DNA from: Candidatus Nealsonbacteria bacterium
Lineage (GTDB): Bacteria; Patescibacteriota; Minisyncoccia; Minisyncoccales; JANBVM01
NCBI GenBank assembly: GCA_047456295.1
Contig: CP179887.1
Location: 111,159 to 175,158 of the forward strand
DNA: 64,000 nt
Direction: 5' to 3'
In this document: positions 548-23,836 of the stretch, one piece after another
Numbering within the stretch: position 1 is the stretch's first letter
Layout: each line of letters begins with the position of its first letter
Made by a program: the position numbers and the translations under genes
The notes under the pieces: model-generated
What the model was told of the DNA's origin: nothing
What the model saw: the letters and a program-made list of their open reading frames with translations, nothing else
Database searches by the model: none

Positions 548-2521
548 TTAAAACTCAATTTTATATACTTTCAAACTATTCAAAAGATAGATTATTTTTC
601 CATTTTCAGAAACGCCAAAATCTAATAAATTGTCGAACTTCTCACTTTGGAATTGTTTAATTATATTGCCAGATTTATCCAAAATAACGATTCTTTTTTG
701 AACAGGCTCTAAAATATAAAGGTAAGGCAGGATGGGGGAGGTGAAGATTTTTGAAAAATCCTTGGGAGAAGGAAAAATTTCAAGCCCAATCTCTTTTTCA
801 AATATACCCTCATAATATTTATAAATTGAATTTTCCTTTAAAATCCAGATTGCAGTATCAATGGCAAAAGAGTCAGCTCCCATAACCTTTGTGGTTTTGG
901 AATCTAGCCATAACCGGGGAGAATCCCATTTTAAATTTCTAAGGAAAGGATACTTTATTATCTGACCCTCCTTTTTATCAAGAAAATATATGTTTTTTCT
1001 AAAAGAAGAAAAATCATTGGAATTAAAATCTGGATAAGGGATCTCTAAAGAAGGGTGAGTAAGTTTATTATTCTTTAAAATAATTAATTGTTCTGGTTTT
1101 GAGAAAAAAGAAATTGAATCATCAAGAGATGCAGCAAAATCAATTTCTTGTTCGGTCTCAATAATATTTTTCTCTCCATTTTCTTTTAACTGGAATATAT
1201 TTTTTGAATAAGGATTAAAGAAATAAAGATTTTCATTAAAAACCAAAAACTTAAGTGGGACAAATGTTTTTCTTTCAAATTCAAATAATACCTGGGGGTT
1301 CTCAATTCGTTCTAATTTGTTTAACTCAGCTAGTTTTTCTGAGATGTCATCTTTTAATGTTGAAACTTGATAATTCAAGGTCTCTGGTAAACCCATTACC
1401 TTTTTAGACAAAGAAGAAATCTCTTCCCAGCTTTCCTTTAACAACAGGTTTGCTTTTTGAATAGCTTCAGGACTTGCTTCTTTTAAAATTAATAAACTGT
1501 CTGCCAGGATCAATTTTTGTCTTATTTCTGCTAAATCTTTATTATATATTTTAATATTCCTCTCTTGTTCAAACCGAGATAGAAAGAAACCCAGAGAAAG
1601 AAGGATGACCAATACAAAAATCAAAGACAGATTTTTATTTAAGAGAAAAGCTTTTATCTTTTTCCTGGAAGAACTTAATTTAGTCTTAGGGACTATAATT
1701 TGAGGAAGCATTAACTTGGCTTTTAAGCCAAGAGGAGGAAAAGTACTTTTTCTGATTTTTTTAAAAAGGTTTAAAAAGGGACTGAAAGCTTCTTTTAAAG
1801 AAAACTTTTTTAATAATTTAGGTGAAACGGTTTCTTTTTTTCCCAAAAAGACTTCTTTTGTTAAAAGTACTGCCATAAAAACCCCTGATATCTCAAACAA
1901 CAATTCTTCTTTTTTATTTAAGATTTCTTTTAATCCTTTTTCAGTAAGGGGAGTTAATTGAGCAATCTCATTTAACATGTCTTGTTTTTGAAAGAAATCA
2001 AAGATATCTTCGGTCAAAACTAAGATTACGTCATTTTCAGTTAGTTTACCTGAAACCGTATTAATGAATATTTTTAAAGGGTAAGGTTCTATGTCTTGGA
2101 GTGTTATTTTTTTATCAATATCAATTATCTTGCCTCCTCTTAAAACCAATATTTTTATATTTCCCACTTTGGTAAAATTTAATTTAAAATCCTTAAGAGA
2201 AAGTATGGTAAAGCTTATATTTCCCAGCCAGCTGACGTCACCTTTTTGGGTGATTCCTTCTAAAAACTCATTTGCTGTTTTTAAGGTTGCTTTCAGTGAT
2301 TTTTCAGGAGTGCCTGTTGTTGAACGGTAATATTTATCCTTCACAACCTTTACCAGTTTTTCTATGAAGTGGGTATTCTGAGGCAGTACGTTTTTTAAAA
2401 ATCCCACTATATACAGACTTCCCATTCTTTTTTCGTAAAGATTTTCCGGCTCATAACAAAAACTGTCAAAAACCAGGTTTGACTTTATTTTGGGATTAAA
2501 ATGGAACTCAAAAACCTTCAT
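548..2521 (-). CDS. hypothetical membrane protein (657 aa)
   Basis: Long ORF with one central hydrophobic helix (LSLIFVLVILLSLGFFLS). No catalytic motif recognised. Confidence 0.6.
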   Translation of the reverse strand: MKVFEFHFNPKIKSNLVFDSFCYEPENLYEKRMGSLYIVGFLKNVLPQNTHFIEKLVKVVKDKYYRSTTGTPEKSLKATLKTANEFLEGITQKGDVSWLGNISFTILSLKDFKLNFTKVGNIKILVLRGGKIIDIDKKITLQDIEPYPLKIFINTVSGKLTENDVILVLTEDIFDFFQKQDMLNEIAQLTPLTEKGLKEILNKKEELLFEISGVFMAVLLTKEVFLGKKETVSPKLLKKFSLKEAFSPFLNLFKKIRKSTFPPLGLKAKLMLPQIIVPKTKLSSSRKKIKAFLLNKNLSLIFVLVILLSLGFFLSRFEQERNIKIYNKDLAEIRQKLILADSLLILKEASPEAIQKANLLLKESWEEISSLSKKVMGLPETLNYQVSTLKDDISEKLAELNKLERIENPQVLFEFERKTFVPLKFLVFNENLYFFNPYSKNIFQLKENGEKNIIETEQEIDFAASLDDSISFFSKPEQLIILKNNKLTHPSLEIPYPDFNSNDFSSFRKNIYFLDKKEGQIIKYPFLRNLKWDSPRLWLDSKTTKVMGADSFAIDTAIWILKENSIYKYYEGIFEKEIGLEIFPSPKDFSKIFTSPILPYLYILEPVQKRIVILDKSGNIIKQFQSEKFDNLLDFGVSENGKIIYLLNSLKVYKIEF

Positions 2522-2609
2522 AATAAGGTATTTTACTTTTTATTTTGATTGTTGTAAAATGAATAAAGTTACCTTAAAAATTAATTTAAATAATGAAGGA
2601 TGATTTAAT

Positions 2610-3092
2610 ATGGAAGGAATTGATATTAAACAAATAGGTTTTGATTTTGACGGCGTCATCGTAAAACTACCATACCCATTACAGAGAATATCAAATAGGT
2701 TACCTTGGTGGCTTTCTGGAGCATTGAACTTTTTGATAGGTCAGCCAGACGAAGAAATCTTAGGAATTGTAAGAAAACTAAAAGAAAAAGGTTATAAAAT
2801 AATTATCATTACCTCAAGACCAAATTTTTTAAAGAGGCGGTTGAGAGAATTCTTTGAGAAAAGTTTAAATAGTTTAAATTATGATAAAACTCCGTGTCTG
2901 GAGATAATTTGTACAGGACCCATAAAAAGAAAATTAAAGAAACTAAAAGTCATGAAGGAAAAAGGTATTCAGTTTCTTATAGATGATGACGGAGGTTGTA
3001 GATTTTTTCTAAAAAGGAATTCAGTTTTAGCCTTTTCCCCTGAGAGTTTTAATAGACTGTTATTGAAAAATCTAGGCCTAGAAGGCAGTTAA
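2610..3092 (+). CDS. HAD-superfamily hydrolase-like protein
   Basis: Motif I FDFDGV, motif II IIITSRP, and a C-terminal acidic motif LIDDDG. Confidence 0.55.
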   Translation: MEGIDIKQIGFDFDGVIVKLPYPLQRISNRLPWWLSGALNFLIGQPDEEILGIVRKLKEKGYKIIIITSRPNFLKRRLREFFEKSLNSLNYDKTPCLEIICTGPIKRKLKKLKVMKEKGIQFLIDDDGGCRFFLKRNSVLAFSPESFNRLLLKNLGLEGS

Positions 3093-3114
3093 AAGAATAC
3101 TGCCCTCTTTTTTT
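3084..3114 (+). terminator. Rho-independent terminator
   Basis: GGCAGT (3084-3089) pairs with ACTGCC (3099-3104), followed by CTCTTTTTTT. Confidence 0.55.
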
Positions 3115-3155
3115 ACTATTTATACAAAATTTGCTAAATTGAAGAAATAATATTC

Positions 3156-3228
3156 GGGCTCGTAGCTCAGGGGTTAGAGCGTACGGTTCACATCCGTAAG
3201 GTCATAGGTTCAATTCCTGTCGAGCCCA
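3156..3228 (+). tRNA. tRNA-Val (anticodon CAC)
   Basis: Hand-folded 73-nt cloverleaf. Acceptor GGGCTCG/CGAGCCC, anticodon stem TACGG/CCGTA, loop TTCACAT, T-loop TTCAATT. No encoded CCA. Confidence 0.9.
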
Positions 3229-3296
3229 CAAGATTTCACATATCCAGACACCTTTTTTATTTACAAAATATCTAAAAAATGAGATTATAAAAGAAG

Positions 3297-3629
3297 ATGA
3301 AGAAAAAAGCTTTTATTGAGGAAGAATTGTACAAAAAAGCTTCTATCAATGACTTGATTCTTTTTGGAATTTATTCTGTAACCACTGGTGCTAAAAAATG
3401 TCAGTTTGAAACACTGGTACATCAATGTTTCAGATTATTTCCCAAAGTCTTTGCCCTTTCTGATTACCCTAAATGGCCAGACAGCCGCAAATTAGACCGT
3501 CCCCTCAGGACCTTAAGAAATAAAAGACTAATCACGGGGAATCCAAAAACCTCTTTTTCTTTAACAAAAAGGGGCAAGAAAAAAGCTTTGGAGATTGCCA
3601 ATGTTTTCAGACAGGGAAAATTGTTATAA
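3297..3629 (+). CDS. hypothetical protein (110 aa), basic C-terminus
   Basis: ORF in the same orientation as its neighbours. No motif recognised. Confidence 0.45.
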   Translation: MKKKAFIEEELYKKASINDLILFGIYSVTTGAKKCQFETLVHQCFRLFPKVFALSDYPKWPDSRKLDRPLRTLRNKRLITGNPKTSFSLTKRGKKKALEIANVFRQGKLL

Positions 3630-3689
3630 AATACTAAATAAAAATGTTTAAAAGGTCGGTAACTAAAATAAGTTTTTTCAAAACAAGAA

Positions 3690-3812
3690 ATGGGATCGTA
3701 TATCGTTAATGTTTTTGAAGCATTAGTATTCGGAATAACAGTACTCTTTTTTGTCGGTGCTTTAATCCTAGGTCTACTTTTCACCATTATTAAGGGTTTA
3801 CGTGGTTTCTAA
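3690..3812 (+). CDS. possible small membrane protein (40 aa)
   Basis: ATG 3690 to TAA 3810-3812. MGSYIVNVFEALVFGITVLFFVGALILGLLFTIIKGLRGF is almost entirely one or two hydrophobic helices. Below the ORF-track size cutoff. Confidence 0.3.
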   Translation: MGSYIVNVFEALVFGITVLFFVGALILGLLFTIIKGLRGF

Positions 3813-3858
3813 ATACTGATTTTTGAATTTACGGCTTGCTTTAGAAACAAAATCATAT

Positions 3859-4140
3859 ATGGAAAAGAAAACCAGAGCCCATATTTTTGTTTCGGGCCGT
3901 GTCCAGGGTGTATATTTTAGGGAAAACACCCGCAAAAAAGCTGAACAGCTGGATGTTTCAGGCTGGATTAAAAATCTATCAGATGGCCGGGTGGAAGCTG
4001 TGTTTGAAGGAGAGGAAGATAAGATAGAAAAGATAGTAGCTTGGATCAAGAAAGGTCCAATTTTCGCTAAGATCATTGATTTGAAGATTGAGTGGCAGGA
4101 ATACAAAGGGGAATTCAAAGGTTTTGATATTAGATTTTAG
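3859..4140 (+). CDS. acyP: acylphosphatase
   Basis: VSGRVQGVYFR and GWIKNLSDGRVEAVFEG motifs, with the typical ~90 aa size. Internal ATG at 3859 preferred over the track start at 3823. Confidence 0.85.
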   Translation: MEKKTRAHIFVSGRVQGVYFRENTRKKAEQLDVSGWIKNLSDGRVEAVFEGEEDKIEKIVAWIKKGPIFAKIIDLKIEWQEYKGEFKGFDIRF

Positions 4141-4227
4141 TGAAATGGCTAGAATAACTCCTAAAATTACAAAATTAGTTAAGTCTTATCTTTCTAAAGG
4201 TCTTAATTATAAATTATTTAATCTATT

Positions 4228-5431
4228 ATGAGCAAATTTTTAAAAACAACAGTAATGGCCCCTCCACGGTCGGGAAAATCGGGAAAATTCCTGGTTACTT
4301 CCGAGTCGGTAACGGAGGGGCATCCCTGACAAAGTCTGTGATCAAATAGCAGATTCTATTTTAGACAATCTTATAAAAAAAGATAAATATTCCAGGGTAG
4401 CCTGTGAAGTAATGACAGGAATGGGTTATGTAATAGTAGGAGGAGAAATTACAACCCGTAGCTGGATAGACGTTTCTCAGATTGCCAGGGATGTGATGGG
4501 AGATATAGGTTATACAAAGCCTGAATATGGAGTTGATTCTCATACCCTGGCTGTTTTTAATACAGTTCATTCCCAGTCACCGGATATTGCAAGAGGAGTG
4601 AAGAAAGCAGGGACCCAAAAACAAGGAGCAGGAGACCAGGGATTTGTAGTTGGTTATGCTTGCAATGAAACCCCTGAATTAATGCCTTTGCCAATAATGT
4701 TGGCTCACAAATTAGTTAGAAGATTAGCTCAAGTTCGGAAAAAGAAAATTATACCTTATTTGAGGCCTGACGGTAAAAGTCAGGTAAGCGTTGAATATAG
4801 AAACGGGATTGCTAAAAGATTAAATAACGTGGTGATTGCAGCCCAGCATGACCCTGATGTTTCTTTAAAAAAGATTAAACAGGATATCAAAAAACACGTA
4901 ATTAGACCTGTTTGCCAGAGGTTTTTGGATAGAAGAACGAGATATTATATAAATAATACAGGTCGATTTGTTATTGGAGGACCTGTGGCTGACACAGGGG
5001 CTACCGGGAGAAAAACAGTTGTTGATTCTTATGGAGGAGTAGTTCCTATCGGAGGTGGTAGTTTTTCAGGCAAGGACCCGACTAAAGTTGATAGGTCAGG
5101 TGCTTATATGTCTCGCTATATTGCAAAGAATATTGTAGCTGCAGGTCTGGCAGAAAAATGTGAAGTTCAAATAGGTTATGTAATAGGGGGAGTAGAACCT
5201 TTGTCCTTAAAAATAGAAACTTTTGGAACGGGAAAAGTTTCTAATGAAAAATTGGTAAAAGTAGTTCCTAGGGTTTTTGAGTTAAACCCGGGAGGAATTA
5301 TTAAACAGCTTAAACTTTTAAGACCTATTTACCGCAATACAGCAGCTTACGGACATTTTGGGAGAGAAGAACCGGGTTTTACTTGGGAAAAAATAGATAG
5401 AGTAAAACAACTCTTGAAATTATTCCCTTAA
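4228..5431 (+). CDS. metK: S-adenosylmethionine synthetase, reading frame interrupted by a +1 shift at 4324-4330
   Basis: Frame 1 (4228-4329) encodes ...[13 protein letters not shown] then stops. Frame 2 from 4328 continues [13 protein letters not shown]...GGEITT...QSPDIARGV...GAGDQG...YGHFGR. Joined, the two give a complete MetK. Confidence 0.85.
4314..4330 (+). other. candidate +1 frameshift site (or single-base insertion)
   Basis: GGAGGGG CAT CCC TGA C. A +1 slip of the P-site Pro-tRNA from CCC to CCT restores GHP-DK. Confidence 0.4.
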
Positions 5432-21147: not shown

Positions 21148-22794
21148 ATGAAAAACTGGAGAACTGATATAATCTTTGTTATCTTTCTGCTTGTTTCAGC
21201 GACTATTATAGGTCGTCTGGTTTTTATTCAAATTCTCCAGGGCGATCTTTACAAGGCCCTTTCCCAGGGTCTCCATGCCTCTTTTAATGAAATGCCTGGA
21301 AACAGGGGAGAGATTTTTTTGAAAGGAGGAGAGTCTCTGGCAATAAACATAGACCAGCCATTTGTTTTTACCCATCCCTCAAAGATTAAAAACCTTGAGG
21401 AAACAGTTAATGATTTAAGTCAGGTCTTAGGTCTGGAAAAGGATTTTCTCTTGGCAAAACTGCAAAAGGATAATTCTTACTTATTATTGAAAAGAAAGTT
21501 GAATCAACAAGAACTTGAGGCTTTGGAAGAATTAAACATGGAAGGTATTTATATTGATAAAGAAAAAGGAAGATATTATCCCCAGGAAAACCTGGCTTCC
21601 CAGATAGTGGGTTTCCTGGGAGCAGAAGGAAAAGGACAATATGGTCTGGAACAATTCTACAACCTGATATTGACAACCGAAGCCAGCTTTGAAGAAAACA
21701 AACAGGGTTCTGATTTAATCCTGACCATTGATTACAATATTCAGTTTAAGGCAGAAGAACTATTGCAAAAGGTAAAACAGGATTTAGGGGTTGAAAAGGG
21801 ACAGGTGATTGTAATTGAACCTAATTCTGGAAAGATACTGGCTATGGCCAATCTGTTAAATTTCAATCCCAACCATTATGAACAATATGCCAGAGAAGGA
21901 AATCTGGAAGTTTTCAAAAACAGAGCCACCCAGGAATTGTTTGAACCAGGTTCTGTTTTCAAGGCAATAACCATGGCAGCTGCCCTGCAAGAAAATAAAA
22001 TTTCCCCTCAAACAACTTACATTGACGAAGGGTCTGTAAAAATTGATGGTTATCCGACTCCTATTTATAATTACGGTCAGAGAGTTCACGGAAAACAAAC
22101 AATGACCAATGTTTTGGAAAAATCAATCAATACCGGGGCTGTTTTTGTACAAAGACAATTAGGTCAAAGCCTTTTTTTGAAATACATAGAAAGCTTTGGT
22201 TTTTTTGAACCTACGGGAATTGACATTCAAGAAACTTATTCTGAAAATAAAGAAATAAAAAAGGGCAGGGAAATAAATTTTGCCACAGCTTCCTTTGGTC
22301 AGGGAATTGAGATAACCCCTATTCAGCTGGTTCGAGCTTATTCTGCTATTGCCAACAAAGGAAGATTAATTAATCCTTATCTGGTAGAAAAAATATTATA
22401 TCAGGAAGATGGACTTGTAATTCCTCAACAGGAAGACACGGGAAAATCTGTTATCTCTTCAATGACCGCTTCTCAATTGACTGCCATGCTGGTGAGTGTG
22501 GTTGAAAATGGCTTTGGTAAACAGGCCAGGGTACCGGGTTATTTTATTGCCGGGAAAACAGGAACAGCCCAGGTTTCTTACGGCGCCCTAGGAATTGACA
22601 AAGATGGTTACTCTGAAGAAACCATTCAAACATTCATTGGTTTTGGCCCGGCTTTCAATCCTCAATTCTTAATCCTGGTAAAGTTAGACAATCCAAAAAC
22701 AAAAACTGCTGAATATTCTGCCATACCCTTGTTTCGTGAATTGGCAGGATACATTATTAATCAATATCAAATTCCACCGGATTATGAATTCTAA
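21148..22794 (+). CDS. ftsI: penicillin-binding protein 2 / FtsI transpeptidase
   Basis: N-terminal TM. GSVFK (SxxK), SINT (SxN) and KTGTA. Confidence 0.9.
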   Translation: MKNWRTDIIFVIFLLVSATIIGRLVFIQILQGDLYKALSQGLHASFNEMPGNRGEIFLKGGESLAINIDQPFVFTHPSKIKNLEETVNDLSQVLGLEKDFLLAKLQKDNSYLLLKRKLNQQELEALEELNMEGIYIDKEKGRYYPQENLASQIVGFLGAEGKGQYGLEQFYNLILTTEASFEENKQGSDLILTIDYNIQFKAEELLQKVKQDLGVEKGQVIVIEPNSGKILAMANLLNFNPNHYEQYAREGNLEVFKNRATQELFEPGSVFKAITMAAALQENKISPQTTYIDEGSVKIDGYPTPIYNYGQRVHGKQTMTNVLEKSINTGAVFVQRQLGQSLFLKYIESFGFFEPTGIDIQETYSENKEIKKGREINFATASFGQGIEITPIQLVRAYSAIANKGRLINPYLVEKILYQEDGLVIPQQEDTGKSVISSMTASQLTAMLVSVVENGFGKQARVPGYFIAGKTGTAQVSYGALGIDKDGYSEETIQTFIGFGPAFNPQFLILVKLDNPKTKTAEYSAIPLFRELAGYIINQYQIPPDYEF

Positions 22795-22795
22795 T

Positions 22796-23836
22796 ATGAA
22801 TCTCTTATCTAAATTTAAATTCTTGTGCAGGAAAAAACCAGTTATTGTGGTAACTGGACAAGGCAGAAAAACTGCTGTCAGGGCTGTTTTGGATGTTTTA
22901 AAACAACATTTTAAGGTTGGGAAAGATATCTTAATTTTTGAATCAACAGATAAAGAGATAAAAAGATTTGAATTCTTTTTGAGAAAATCTCCTAAGGCAT
23001 CAGTGATTGTCACTAATATTGGCGATATTCCTTTTGACAGGGATTATTTTGGCGGAGAAAAGGAAGAGATAAAAAATACCCTTAAACTGGTTGAAACCCT
23101 GCCTGCCCAGACAAATTTAATTTTGAATTTTGACGATGAAACCGTGAGAGAAATAGATGATTTGACTAATCTTAATACCCTGAGCTTTGGTTTCCAGCTA
23201 GGAGCAGACTTTAAGGCAAGTGATGTGAAATTTAACGGTGGAACAAACTTTAAGGTGAATTATAAGGGGAATGTTGTTCCTGTCTGGCTGGAAAAGATTT
23301 TTGGCAAAGAACAGATTTACTCTGCTTTATGTGCAACAGCTATGGCAACGGTTTTGGGATTAAACCTGGTGGAAACGTCTCAATCTCTTAAAAACTATCA
23401 TTCTTTGCCAGGTAAAATGAAACTCATTAAAGGGATAAAAAACTCCTGGATATTGGATGATACTGAATCAGCAACCGTATTCTCAATGATTGAAGCGCTT
23501 GAAATCTTGGGAAAGCTTAAAAACTTCAAAAGAAAGATAGCTGTTTTAGGGGACATTATAGGGATTGGAAAATACACCATTGAAGCCCATGAAGCCATAG
23601 GGGAAAAGGTGATTGAAAATGCTGATTTTCTCTTTACCTTTGGTTCCCGGGCTCGCTTTATTTCCAAAGGAGCTGAAGTAAAGGGAATGGTTAATGAAAA
23701 AATATCTTCATTTAATACGATTGAACAAGGAGTGTCAGAGCTTCGAAAAGAAATTAAAGAAGGTGACCTGATTCTCGTTGATGGTTCCAAAGACATGCAA
23801 ATGAAAGAGATAGTTGAAAAAATTAAAGTTAGATAG
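22796..23836 (+). CDS. divergent Mur ligase family protein (MurF-like)
   Basis: VVTGQGRKT where GTNGKT is expected, plus VTNIG, LDDTESA and GDIIGIG..T..H. Start could be 22784 or 22796. Confidence 0.55.
   Translation: MNLLSKFKFLCRKKPVIVVTGQGRKTAVRAVLDVLKQHFKVGKDILIFESTDKEIKRFEFFLRKSPKASVIVTNIGDIPFDRDYFGGEKEEIKNTLKLVETLPAQTNLILNFDDETVREIDDLTNLNTLSFGFQLGADFKASDVKFNGGTNFKVNYKGNVVPVWLEKIFGKEQIYSALCATAMATVLGLNLVETSQSLKNYHSLPGKMKLIKGIKNSWILDDTESATVFSMIEALEILGKLKNFKRKIAVLGDIIGIGKYTIEAHEAIGEKVIENADFLFTFGSRARFISKGAEVKGMVNEKISSFNTIEQGVSELRKEIKEGDLILVDGSKDMQMKEIVEKIKVR

Follow-up and report, generated by a model that had tools for sequence, protein, structure and literature searches.

Candidate phyla radiation bacteria and DPANN archaea probably read an interrupted metK through a conserved +1 frameshift site

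The stretch of DNA considered here, called the window, comprises 64,000 nucleotides from Candidatus Nealsonbacteria bacterium (assembly GCA_047456295.1, contig CP179887.1, positions 111,159 to 175,158 of the forward strand), and our subject is its gene for S-adenosylmethionine (SAM) synthetase, metK, which is found on the forward strand in two pieces. The first open reading frame (ORF1, 4228-4326) begins with ATG at 4228, has 33 codons in frame 0 and ends with ...TEGHP in front of a TGA stop at 4327-4329, and direct reading of the DNA reveals more frame-0 stops directly beyond it. The second (ORF2, 4328-5431) is in the +1 frame, has 367 codons and a stop at 5429-5431, runs from DKVCDQ... to ...KLFP, and is by its sequence the remainder of a full-length SAM synthetase. 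The junction reads TCG GTA ACG GAG GGG CAT CCC TGA C AAA GTC, with GGAGGGG at 4314-4320, CAT at 4321-4323, CCC at 4324-4326, T at 4327 and GAC at 4328-4330, and the GHPDK motif of MetK is broken as GHP/DK at 4326/4328. The initial annotation had placed the split at exactly this point, and its coordinates and description of the two frames are correct. It had also pointed to four similarities to the frameshift site of the release factor gene prfB, namely a purine run resembling a Shine-Dalgarno (SD) sequence, its 3-nt spacing, a P-site codon that can re-pair and the UGA-C context, all of which are present in the window.

According to tblastn the 64 kb hold a single metK, whose two pieces fall in frames 1 and 2. 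Along its whole length the joined 400-aa protein shares 98% identity with an in-frame protein of 400 aa (P0001) that carries the domains PF00438, PF02772 and PF02773, and a three-domain MetK with an intact GHPDK motif is obtained in the window only once a +1 shift is applied. ORF1 consists of a 17-residue N-terminal extension, which is typical of the bacterial alleles called class A below, followed by the universal MetK segment. Its conserved 10-residue peptide is kept in frame 0 at all loci, while the synonymous sites of that peptide vary.

The same interruption occurs far beyond the window. Metagenomes (83 loci) and GTDB genomes (35 loci) were scanned with a pattern for E-G-H-P-D-K-[IV]-x-D-Q in which one additional base of any kind may stand between the Pro and Asp codons, and in 97 of the 118 loci the Pro codon (CCY) is followed by TGA and then C or T. 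With three close relatives of the window added (L002, L003 and L004), 100 of 121 loci have CCC or CCT, TGA and then C or T, as compared with 25% expected by chance (binomial p ~1e-39). The initial annotation had asked whether the frame change is conserved in the metK 5' regions of related genomes, and the same CCY-TGA split is found in about 100 loci. The other 21 loci have insertions of the homopolymer type (CCCC-GAC, CCC-GGAC or CCC-AGAC) and belong to unrelated phyla, including Actinomycetes, Acidobacteria, Flavobacteriales and Desulfovibrionaceae; many are long-read metagenome-assembled genomes (MAGs) and several have extra breaks, and they therefore serve as a noise control.

The trivial explanation for the window, also raised in the initial annotation, is a sequencing or assembly error that put a spurious C into the CCC run of CAT CCT GAC. 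Compared with in-frame relatives the change is indeed a homopolymer extension from CC to CCC, and errors of this kind, such as CCCC GAC and CCC GGAC, do occur in other phyla among long-read MAGs. However, L002 and L003 (two Logan assemblies) and L004 (JGI) are independent assemblies of distinct strains which all read GGAGGGGCATCCCTGAC and which differ from the window and from one another at many other positions. The 97 further loci come from different projects and technologies, with Illumina metagenomes, MAGs and a single-cell genome (L123) among the sources of the TGA-type loci. The rest of the window is coding-dense, in a genome of about 34% G+C; TGA is an ordinary stop, used by 9 of 54 long ORFs, no other split gene was seen, and the overlapping ORF pairs that were checked for further broken genes all proved to be distinct genes. 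The recurrence over about 100 loci makes error untenable as a general explanation, and for the window itself we consider its probability negligible.

The site is carried by 26 GTDB species representatives, of which 18 are DPANN-type archaea (Aenigmatarchaeota, Nanoarchaeota, archaeal MAGs and an Iainarchaeum single-cell genome) and eight are bacteria of the candidate phyla radiation (CPR; Nealsonbacteria, Berkelbacteria, 'Saccharibacteria' and Patescibacteria). The genomic context of the archaeal loci is consistent with this, as for instance in L095, which is adjoined by an STT3/AglB-like ORF with a WWDxG motif. Two loci contain tRNA-Lys(UUU) genes 99 nt long (L026:3880-3978 and L099:973-1071), a length that suggests an intron and fits the archaeal assignment of L026 and L099. 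Among viral contigs there were no matches to the interrupted-metK pattern.

For the analysis of gene integrity we used 56 loci picked for a complete ORF2 of normal length. Both ORFs are intact in all 56, and in nearly all TGA-type loci ORF1 starts with Met and has the conserved end, while the +1 ORF2 is intact with about 366-384 aa. The 56 joined proteins are diverse, forming 40 clusters at 90% identity and 14 at 70%, with a minimum identity of 49%. Between pairs in which both genes are interrupted, the ratio of nonsynonymous to synonymous substitution (dN/dS) of ORF2 is 0.03-0.13, over a range of dS from 0.04 to more than 2, that is, up to saturation. The window ORF2 itself has a dN/dS of 0.06-0.13 when compared with L002, L003 and L004. 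ORF2 is thus under purifying selection in genes which, read in frame 0, stop at the end of ORF1.

The nucleotides at the shift site are constrained as well. Among 78 non-redundant interrupted sequences the site codons are GGG in 69, CAT in 73 and GAC in 75, and the Pro codon is CCT in 51 and CCC in 27 but never CCA or CCG. UGA is present in 78/78, by selection of the set, and its 3' C in 75/78. The next two Asp codons are GAT and GAC in the proportion 41:37, as opposed to GAC in 75 of 78 at the site (Fisher p = 2.7e-12), and every synonymous form is used in the neighbouring Ser, Val, Thr, Lys and Asp codons. The eight distinct in-frame relatives vary at the same positions, with CCT/CCC/CCA, GAC/GAT, CAT/CAC and GGG/GGT/GGA/GGC; CAY CCT GAY is found in six of them and the other two have CCC and CCA, in agreement with the initial annotation, which had taken CCTGAC to be the uninterrupted form. 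The frozen site codons amid drifting neighbours define the conserved signal as GGG CAU CCY UGA C, a core of 13 nt that is GGG CAU CCC UGA C at 4318-4330 (+) in the window. A covariation between the wobble positions of Glu and Pro (GAG/CCC versus GAA/CCU) was considered and rejected, since within clades CCC and CCU replace each other while the Glu codon stays the same, and there are seven A-C exceptions.

These observations also bear on the second trivial alternative of the initial annotation, a recent inactivation, by which metK would be a pseudogene in a symbiont that imports SAM, possibly spread as a dead gene by a selfish endonuclease. In its favour, CPR and DPANN organisms live as reduced symbionts, deleterious alleles linked to a homing element can be spread by its drive, and the closest relative of the window, L001, is in frame. 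Against this stand the intact ORF2 in 56/56 complete loci, the dN/dS of 0.03-0.13 in pairs that both carry the frameshift, up to synonymous saturation, the conserved ORF1 peptide in frame 0 and the nucleotide-level constraint on the 13-nt site. Moreover, deletion of any of four bases restores His-Pro-Asp, as has happened in L001, and yet the interruption persists across deep clades. Inactivation is accordingly very improbable. L001 encodes P0001 and reads GGAGGGGCA-CCCTGAC, that is CAC CCT GAC, a one-base reversion. Its metK (L001:6001-7203) is the closest relative of the window gene, 98% identical and in frame through the loss of one base, and it keeps the N-terminal extension, GGAGGGG and the arm complementary to it that is described below. 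Being in frame and still retaining these class-A features, L001 seems to have arisen from a frameshifted allele by a recent reversion.

Taken together, the comparisons of gene sequences establish a conserved and selected interruption, where the frame has to change by a net +1 precisely at the Pro-Asp junction. The proposal of the initial annotation, that metK is truly recoded at a +1 site resembling that of prfB, is supported by the recurrence, the intact ORFs, the low dN/dS and the constraint on the site. We would put the probability that metK is functionally recoded by a +1 shift at roughly 0.9.

The interrupted alleles fall into two classes. Class A comprises Nealsonbacteria-like bacteria including the window, with an ORF1 of 26-33 codons, an N-terminal extension that contains Ala-Pro-(Pro/Ser/Leu) and mostly CCC as the shift codon. 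The SD-like GGAGGGG (4314-4320, +) arises from the synonymous choices ACG GAG GGG and ends 3 nt ahead of the shift codon; it is kept in 27/28 class-A sequences, whereas the in-frame relatives compared have ACA/ACC GAR GGN in its place and no GGAGGGG. Upstream of it, the Ala-Pro-Pro codons of the extension form the arm GCCCCUCC (4258-4265, +), which is the exact reverse complement of GGAGGGGC (4314-4321) over 8 bp and shares its core, CCUCC, with the 16S anti-SD sequence. The minimum free energy fold of the window sequence obtained with RNAfold pairs the two arms (-39.4 kcal/mol, z = -2.8), and the 8-bp helix is the sole consensus structure that RNAalifold gives for 28 class-A sequences, with pairing in nearly every cell. 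Substitutions within the helix give G-U pairs and, in L013, one compensatory U-A pair. The upstream arm is conserved as GCCCCUYC, with Pro, Ser or Leu as the third codon and pairing retained, and the class-A duplex energy is -19.1 kcal/mol compared with -8.5 kcal/mol in shuffled upstream sequence (27/27 at p<=0.05).

The extension of the window also holds a 9-nt tandem duplication, TCGGGAAAA x2 (4270-4287, +), with perfect copies encoding Ser-Gly-Lys twice, which represents three codons more than the 30-codon ORF1 of other class-A alleles. This duplication is common to L001, L003 and L004, is diverged in L002 and is absent from the 30-codon class-A alleles.

Class B comprises DPANN archaea and some CPR bacteria and has an ORF1 of 15-18 codons with the signal GAA GGG CAU CCU UGA C. 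Its SD-like element is GAAGGG only, and no conserved long-range helix was found, since RNAalifold gives a trivial 4-bp local hairpin and the duplex energies relative to shuffles have a mean z of -0.8.

From these features we infer the following course of translation. ORF1 would be translated up to Pro33, leaving peptidyl-tRNA(Pro) on CCC in the P site and CAU in the E site, while the A site would hold UGA-C, a slowly decoded stop whose 3' C doubles as part of GAC. UGA-C is a weak termination context. GGAGGGG would pair with the 16S anti-SD, or re-pair with the GCCCCUCC arm behind the ribosome, and tRNA(Pro) would slip from CCC to CCU, a triplet that is fully cognate for a GGG or UGG anticodon. 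GAC would be read next, giving ...TEGHP-DKV... and the full-length MetK, and ribosomes that do not slip would terminate with a 33-residue peptide. By analogy with prfB, the SD-like element at its spacing is a probable class-A stimulator. The class-A helix may re-form behind the ribosome and favour forward movement, or it may compete with the 16S anti-SD. In class B, tRNA(Pro) would re-pair from CCU to CUU via G-U wobbles, and out-of-frame binding in the A site may occur there instead of slippage.

The frame might be corrected in other ways, namely by transcriptional slippage, by RNA editing that takes out a base, by a tRNA(Pro) with an 8-nt loop that reads a quadruplet, or by an internal start of ORF2. 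Nothing direct speaks for these, although quadruplet-reading tRNA(Pro) suppressors of the sufA/sufB type are known that decode CCCN. Polymerase slippage would have no A/T homopolymer to act on, as the run is only C3 or T2, and the cassette comes without a linked tRNA gene in 52 loci. A product starting within ORF2 would lack the conserved peptide of ORF1 and lose part of the active-site motif. The in-frame UGA, required in 78/78, is in turn a hallmark of ribosomal shifting stimulated by a stop in the A site. We therefore regard this group of mechanisms as very unlikely. Internal initiation was also examined in the window as a candidate and rejected, for the ORF2 frame opens at 4313 without any ATG, GTG or TTG ahead of Asp, and its first ATG comes 29 codons in.

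Initiation of ORF1 itself appears to differ in one archaeal subgroup (L011, L018, L019, L024, L036, L054, L058, L078 and L097), where ORF1 is without an in-frame ATG or GTG; L036 has only a TTG, 12 codons ahead of the stop. In this subgroup a conserved GGAGGUGGUAG(U/C)CCCUG places CUG 7 nt past a strong SD, which on the sequence level would imply CUG initiation of ORF1; a short overlapping upstream ORF in the -1 frame (M..EVVVP.. and a stop) is the alternative. At the other end of the gene, ORF2 of the archaeal loci L020 and L104 has 435 aa, with a C-terminal extension of about 60 aa, a low-complexity segment in which Glu, Pro and Lys abound.

The interrupted alleles are associated with homing-endonuclease genes. 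Just upstream of metK the window has an ORF of 28 codons (4145-4231, +), MARITPKIT followed by 19 residues, whose TGA overlaps the metK ATG (ATGA). L004 has at this place, between the acylphosphatase gene and metK, an intact gene for a LAGLIDADG_2 protein of 249 aa (L004:4072-4821) with a stop that likewise overlaps the metK ATG. The ORF of the window equals the first 9 and last 19 residues of this endonuclease, whose C-terminus matches 4163-4225 of the window in tblastn; by this sequence comparison the ORF is a remnant of the endonuclease gene left by an internal deletion. The remnant itself has neither two LAGLIDADG motifs nor a Pfam match. The conserved upstream neighbour in the window is the acylphosphatase gene (3823-4140, +; PF00708, E = 1e-27), and in syntenic in-frame relatives only a short spacer, or a slight overlap of the annotated start, separates this gene from metK.

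A full LAGLIDADG ORF abuts the metK start in 31 frameshifted loci and partial copies are found in 10 more, at least 41 in total, while none of the eight distinct in-frame relatives, admittedly a small sample, has an upstream endonuclease gene. The endonuclease of class A belongs to LAGLIDADG_2 (PF03161, E = 2e-34 in L013) and resembles I-SceI (PDB 1r7m, E = 1.7e-6). That of class B is of a distinct family with a helix-turn-helix and LAGLIDADG_3/1 (PF14528, E ~1e-12).

Upstream of the shift site and across it, L004 does not differ from the window; within 27 nt 3' of the inserted base it then becomes like L005, which is of the in-frame lineage, and this nearby switch lends some indirect support to the insert lying in the endonuclease target. 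Along its metK (L004:4900-6020) window-like and L005-like patches alternate every 150-250 nt. Such a mosaic is expected from patchy repair of a break near the site, but ordinary recombination could also make it. At the level of sequence the patchwork suggests that co-occurring Nealsonbacteria-like strains often recombine or undergo gene conversion with one another. A second cassette boundary was sought by comparing L008 with its nearest in-frame relative L130, a comparison that was uninformative at about 79% nucleotide identity.

Other homing elements target metK too. In L025 (about 2220-4580, - strand) and L066 the frameshifted metK also contains a LAGLIDADG intein of about 415 aa (CIKKG...VHN/S), inserted at the conserved GAGDQG motif. 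With the upstream endonuclease gene and the +1 site, this brings together three selfish or recoding features in one metK.

The association suggests how the interruption may have arisen. The extra base would have come in, and would be or have been kept, with a mobile cassette that carries a free-standing LAGLIDADG gene just upstream of metK. Most plausibly the 1-nt insertion into the DNA for the invariant GHPDK made the carrier allele uncleavable, as is thought for the insert of T4 gene 60, and in the window the endonuclease gene would have decayed to 28 codons while the frameshift stayed. The codons for E-G-H-P-D may be regarded as pre-adapted, in that one C or T added to CCT-GAC would make a slippery Pro codon, UGA-C and a purine-rich element at the right spacing. 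Taking the whole proposal together, that is, recoding through P-site slippage together with an origin from an endonuclease cassette, we consider it likely, judging from the sequences.

There are several observations which weigh against this proposal or parts of it. At the threshold used, 56 frameshifted loci gave no upstream match to an endonuclease homologue, and the presence of the site there argues that the endonuclease is not needed for its maintenance; the window is one of these 56 because its short remnant falls under the threshold. As to the mechanism, re-pairing at CCU-UGA (to CUU) needs two G-U wobbles, which makes slippage less obvious in class B. In class A, the need to encode Glu-Gly-His dictates part of the purine run and of the helix's 3' arm, and the covariation support for the helix is thin, amounting to one compensatory change. 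Finally, it is possible that these genomes have a second source of SAM, such as another metK, an archaeal-type methionine adenosyltransferase or a SAM transporter.

That the site persists without the endonuclease although a one-base deletion reverts it suggests either that the shift is near-neutral by virtue of its efficiency or that it has gained a regulatory use. The latter leads to another explanation, in which the site is a regulatory sensor and not a scar of immunity, responding (a) to the rate of UGA termination and thus to release factor 2 (RF2), or (b) to SAM by way of the N1-methylation of G37 (m1G37) in tRNA(Pro). The 56 loci without a detectable endonuclease span saturated synonymous divergence despite the easy reversion, only CCY codons are used, and no SAM riboswitch lies upstream of metK, where there was no Rfam match; three tRNAs alone reach the gathering score in the whole window. 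Version (b) would further have a logic portable across both domains, which matches the distribution of the site. TrmD and Trm5 both use SAM as the methyl donor. It is therefore tempting to speculate that low SAM would give under-methylated tRNA(Pro), more slippage, more MetK and in turn more SAM, a riboswitch-free and domain-portable feedback loop if true. The m1G37 modification, which is the work of TrmD in bacteria and of Trm5 in archaea, suppresses +1 shifts of tRNA(Pro) (PMC7577736, PMC8384417, PMC5372744), and CCC-U in the P site of the window is the slippery quadruplet that was studied in PMC7577736.

As regards version (a), RF2 coupling cannot be the general logic, given that archaea, which lack RF2, make up 18 of the 26 species representatives. 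Genes for release factors, tRNA(Pro) or TrmD were absent from the window and from the loci examined for them, the window has no Trm5 gene either, and a search of both for a suppressor tRNA gave nothing usable. It also speaks against a sensor that efficient frameshifting at CCC_UGA can be incidental (PMC3082878) and that the strong endonuclease association is in itself a sufficient, non-regulatory rationale. On balance we find a sensor, and the SAM loop in particular, rather doubtful, although an insertion made first for immunity and later kept for regulation would explain how the site outlived the endonuclease gene.

Apart from metK, one gene of the window deserves mention. The Mur-ligase ORF at 22736-23836 (366 aa) matches the middle and C-terminal domains only and shares 59 nt at its start with the end of the transpeptidase gene upstream, and its N-terminal domain may be missing or mis-started.

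In the literature that was searched, which included the main recoding reviews, the GeneTack survey and an archaeal recoding review, we found no mention of a metK frameshift. The endonuclease association and the upstream helix, neither of which the initial annotation could see, are both new. Cellular genes offer very few conserved programmed +1 frameshifts, with prfB as the standard bacterial case, and a 2021 review on recoding in archaea names a single reported cellular frameshift, of the -1 type (PMC8211752). If our reading is right, a core metabolic gene joins the recoded genes, and in archaeal cellular genes the 13-nt signal, common to CPR and DPANN organisms, is probably the first +1 site that is widespread. 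It would also be the second case after T4 gene 60 in which recoding lets an essential gene tolerate the insertion that comes with a homing-endonuclease cassette, here with the smallest possible insertion, a single base, and in cells, not a phage. There is a practical side as well. P0011 and P0015, the gene calls next closest to the window after P0001, are 'truncated' at 336-338 aa and their contigs carry the interruption; as gene callers give such an N-terminally truncated MetK of about 336 aa, it could be misread as gene loss in metabolic reconstructions. The link between SAM, tRNA methylation and maintenance of the reading frame would become directly testable.

Among known systems, the metK site can first be compared with prfB, AGG GGG UAU CUU UGA C. 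In both, UGA comes right after the shift codon and is followed by C, the P-site tRNA can re-pair in +1 (CUU to UUU and CCC to CCU, respectively), and in prfB as in the window the SD-like purine run ends 3 nt ahead of the shift codon. The E-site codon is NAU in both, read by a tRNA with a wobble pair; it is UAU in prfB, and the preference for CAU in metK parallels it. The sites lie early in the gene, at codon 26 in prfB and at codons 15-33 in metK, and both are conserved in many species, with both ORFs intact in the metK orthologues. There are, however, clear differences. The shift codon of metK is Pro CCY and that of prfB Leu CUU, the metK site occurs also in archaea and is tied to a homing-endonuclease gene, and class A adds an upstream arm that resembles, and is complementary like, an anti-SD. 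The product of metK is not a factor that reads stop codons, so that there is no autoregulatory loop of the RF2 type. Since the product is MetK and most carriers are archaea, the site appears to work like that of prfB without being a member of the RF2 autoregulatory system.

The P-site/A-site pair CCC_UGA of the window is identical to that of E. coli pheL, UUC_CCC_UGA, where 15% +1 frameshifting was found, rising to 60% with a nascent-peptide stimulator (PMC3082878). The shift in pheL was judged incidental, as no product depends on it (PMC3082878), whereas the enzyme encoded by metK lies wholly beyond the shift in +1 and the site is selected. CCC-U is also a structurally characterised +1 slippery codon for tRNA(Pro) (PMC7577736).

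Antizyme (UCC UGA U; PMC8211752), a metabolite-sensing case of autoregulatory recoding, is similar to metK in that the gene governs the pool of a small molecule and the +1 shift takes place at a sense codon with UGA next to it on the 3' side, and it is the model for the speculative reading of metK as subject to SAM feedback. It differs in being eukaryotic, stimulated by polyamines and equipped with a downstream pseudoknot (PMC8211752).

With regard to origin, the closest parallel is T4 gene 60, whose bypassed insert of 50 nt is thought to protect the allele from the adjacent homing endonuclease (PMC5009743; bioRxiv 10.1101/2022.08.31.505936). In mobA-gene 60 as in metK a free-standing homing-endonuclease gene adjoins an essential gene, a small non-coding insertion in conserved coding DNA is tolerated through ribosomal recoding, and the cassette is mobile and patchily distributed. 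Pairing of the exiting mRNA has been proposed as a forward driver in gene 60 (bioRxiv 10.1101/2024.12.09.627546), and the class-A helix may be a parallel to this. The metK insert is 1 nt and calls for a +1 shift, as opposed to 50 nt and hopping in gene 60, its hosts are cellular (CPR and DPANN) and not a phage, and its endonucleases are of the LAGLIDADG type, with protection suggested here by the analogy to T4.

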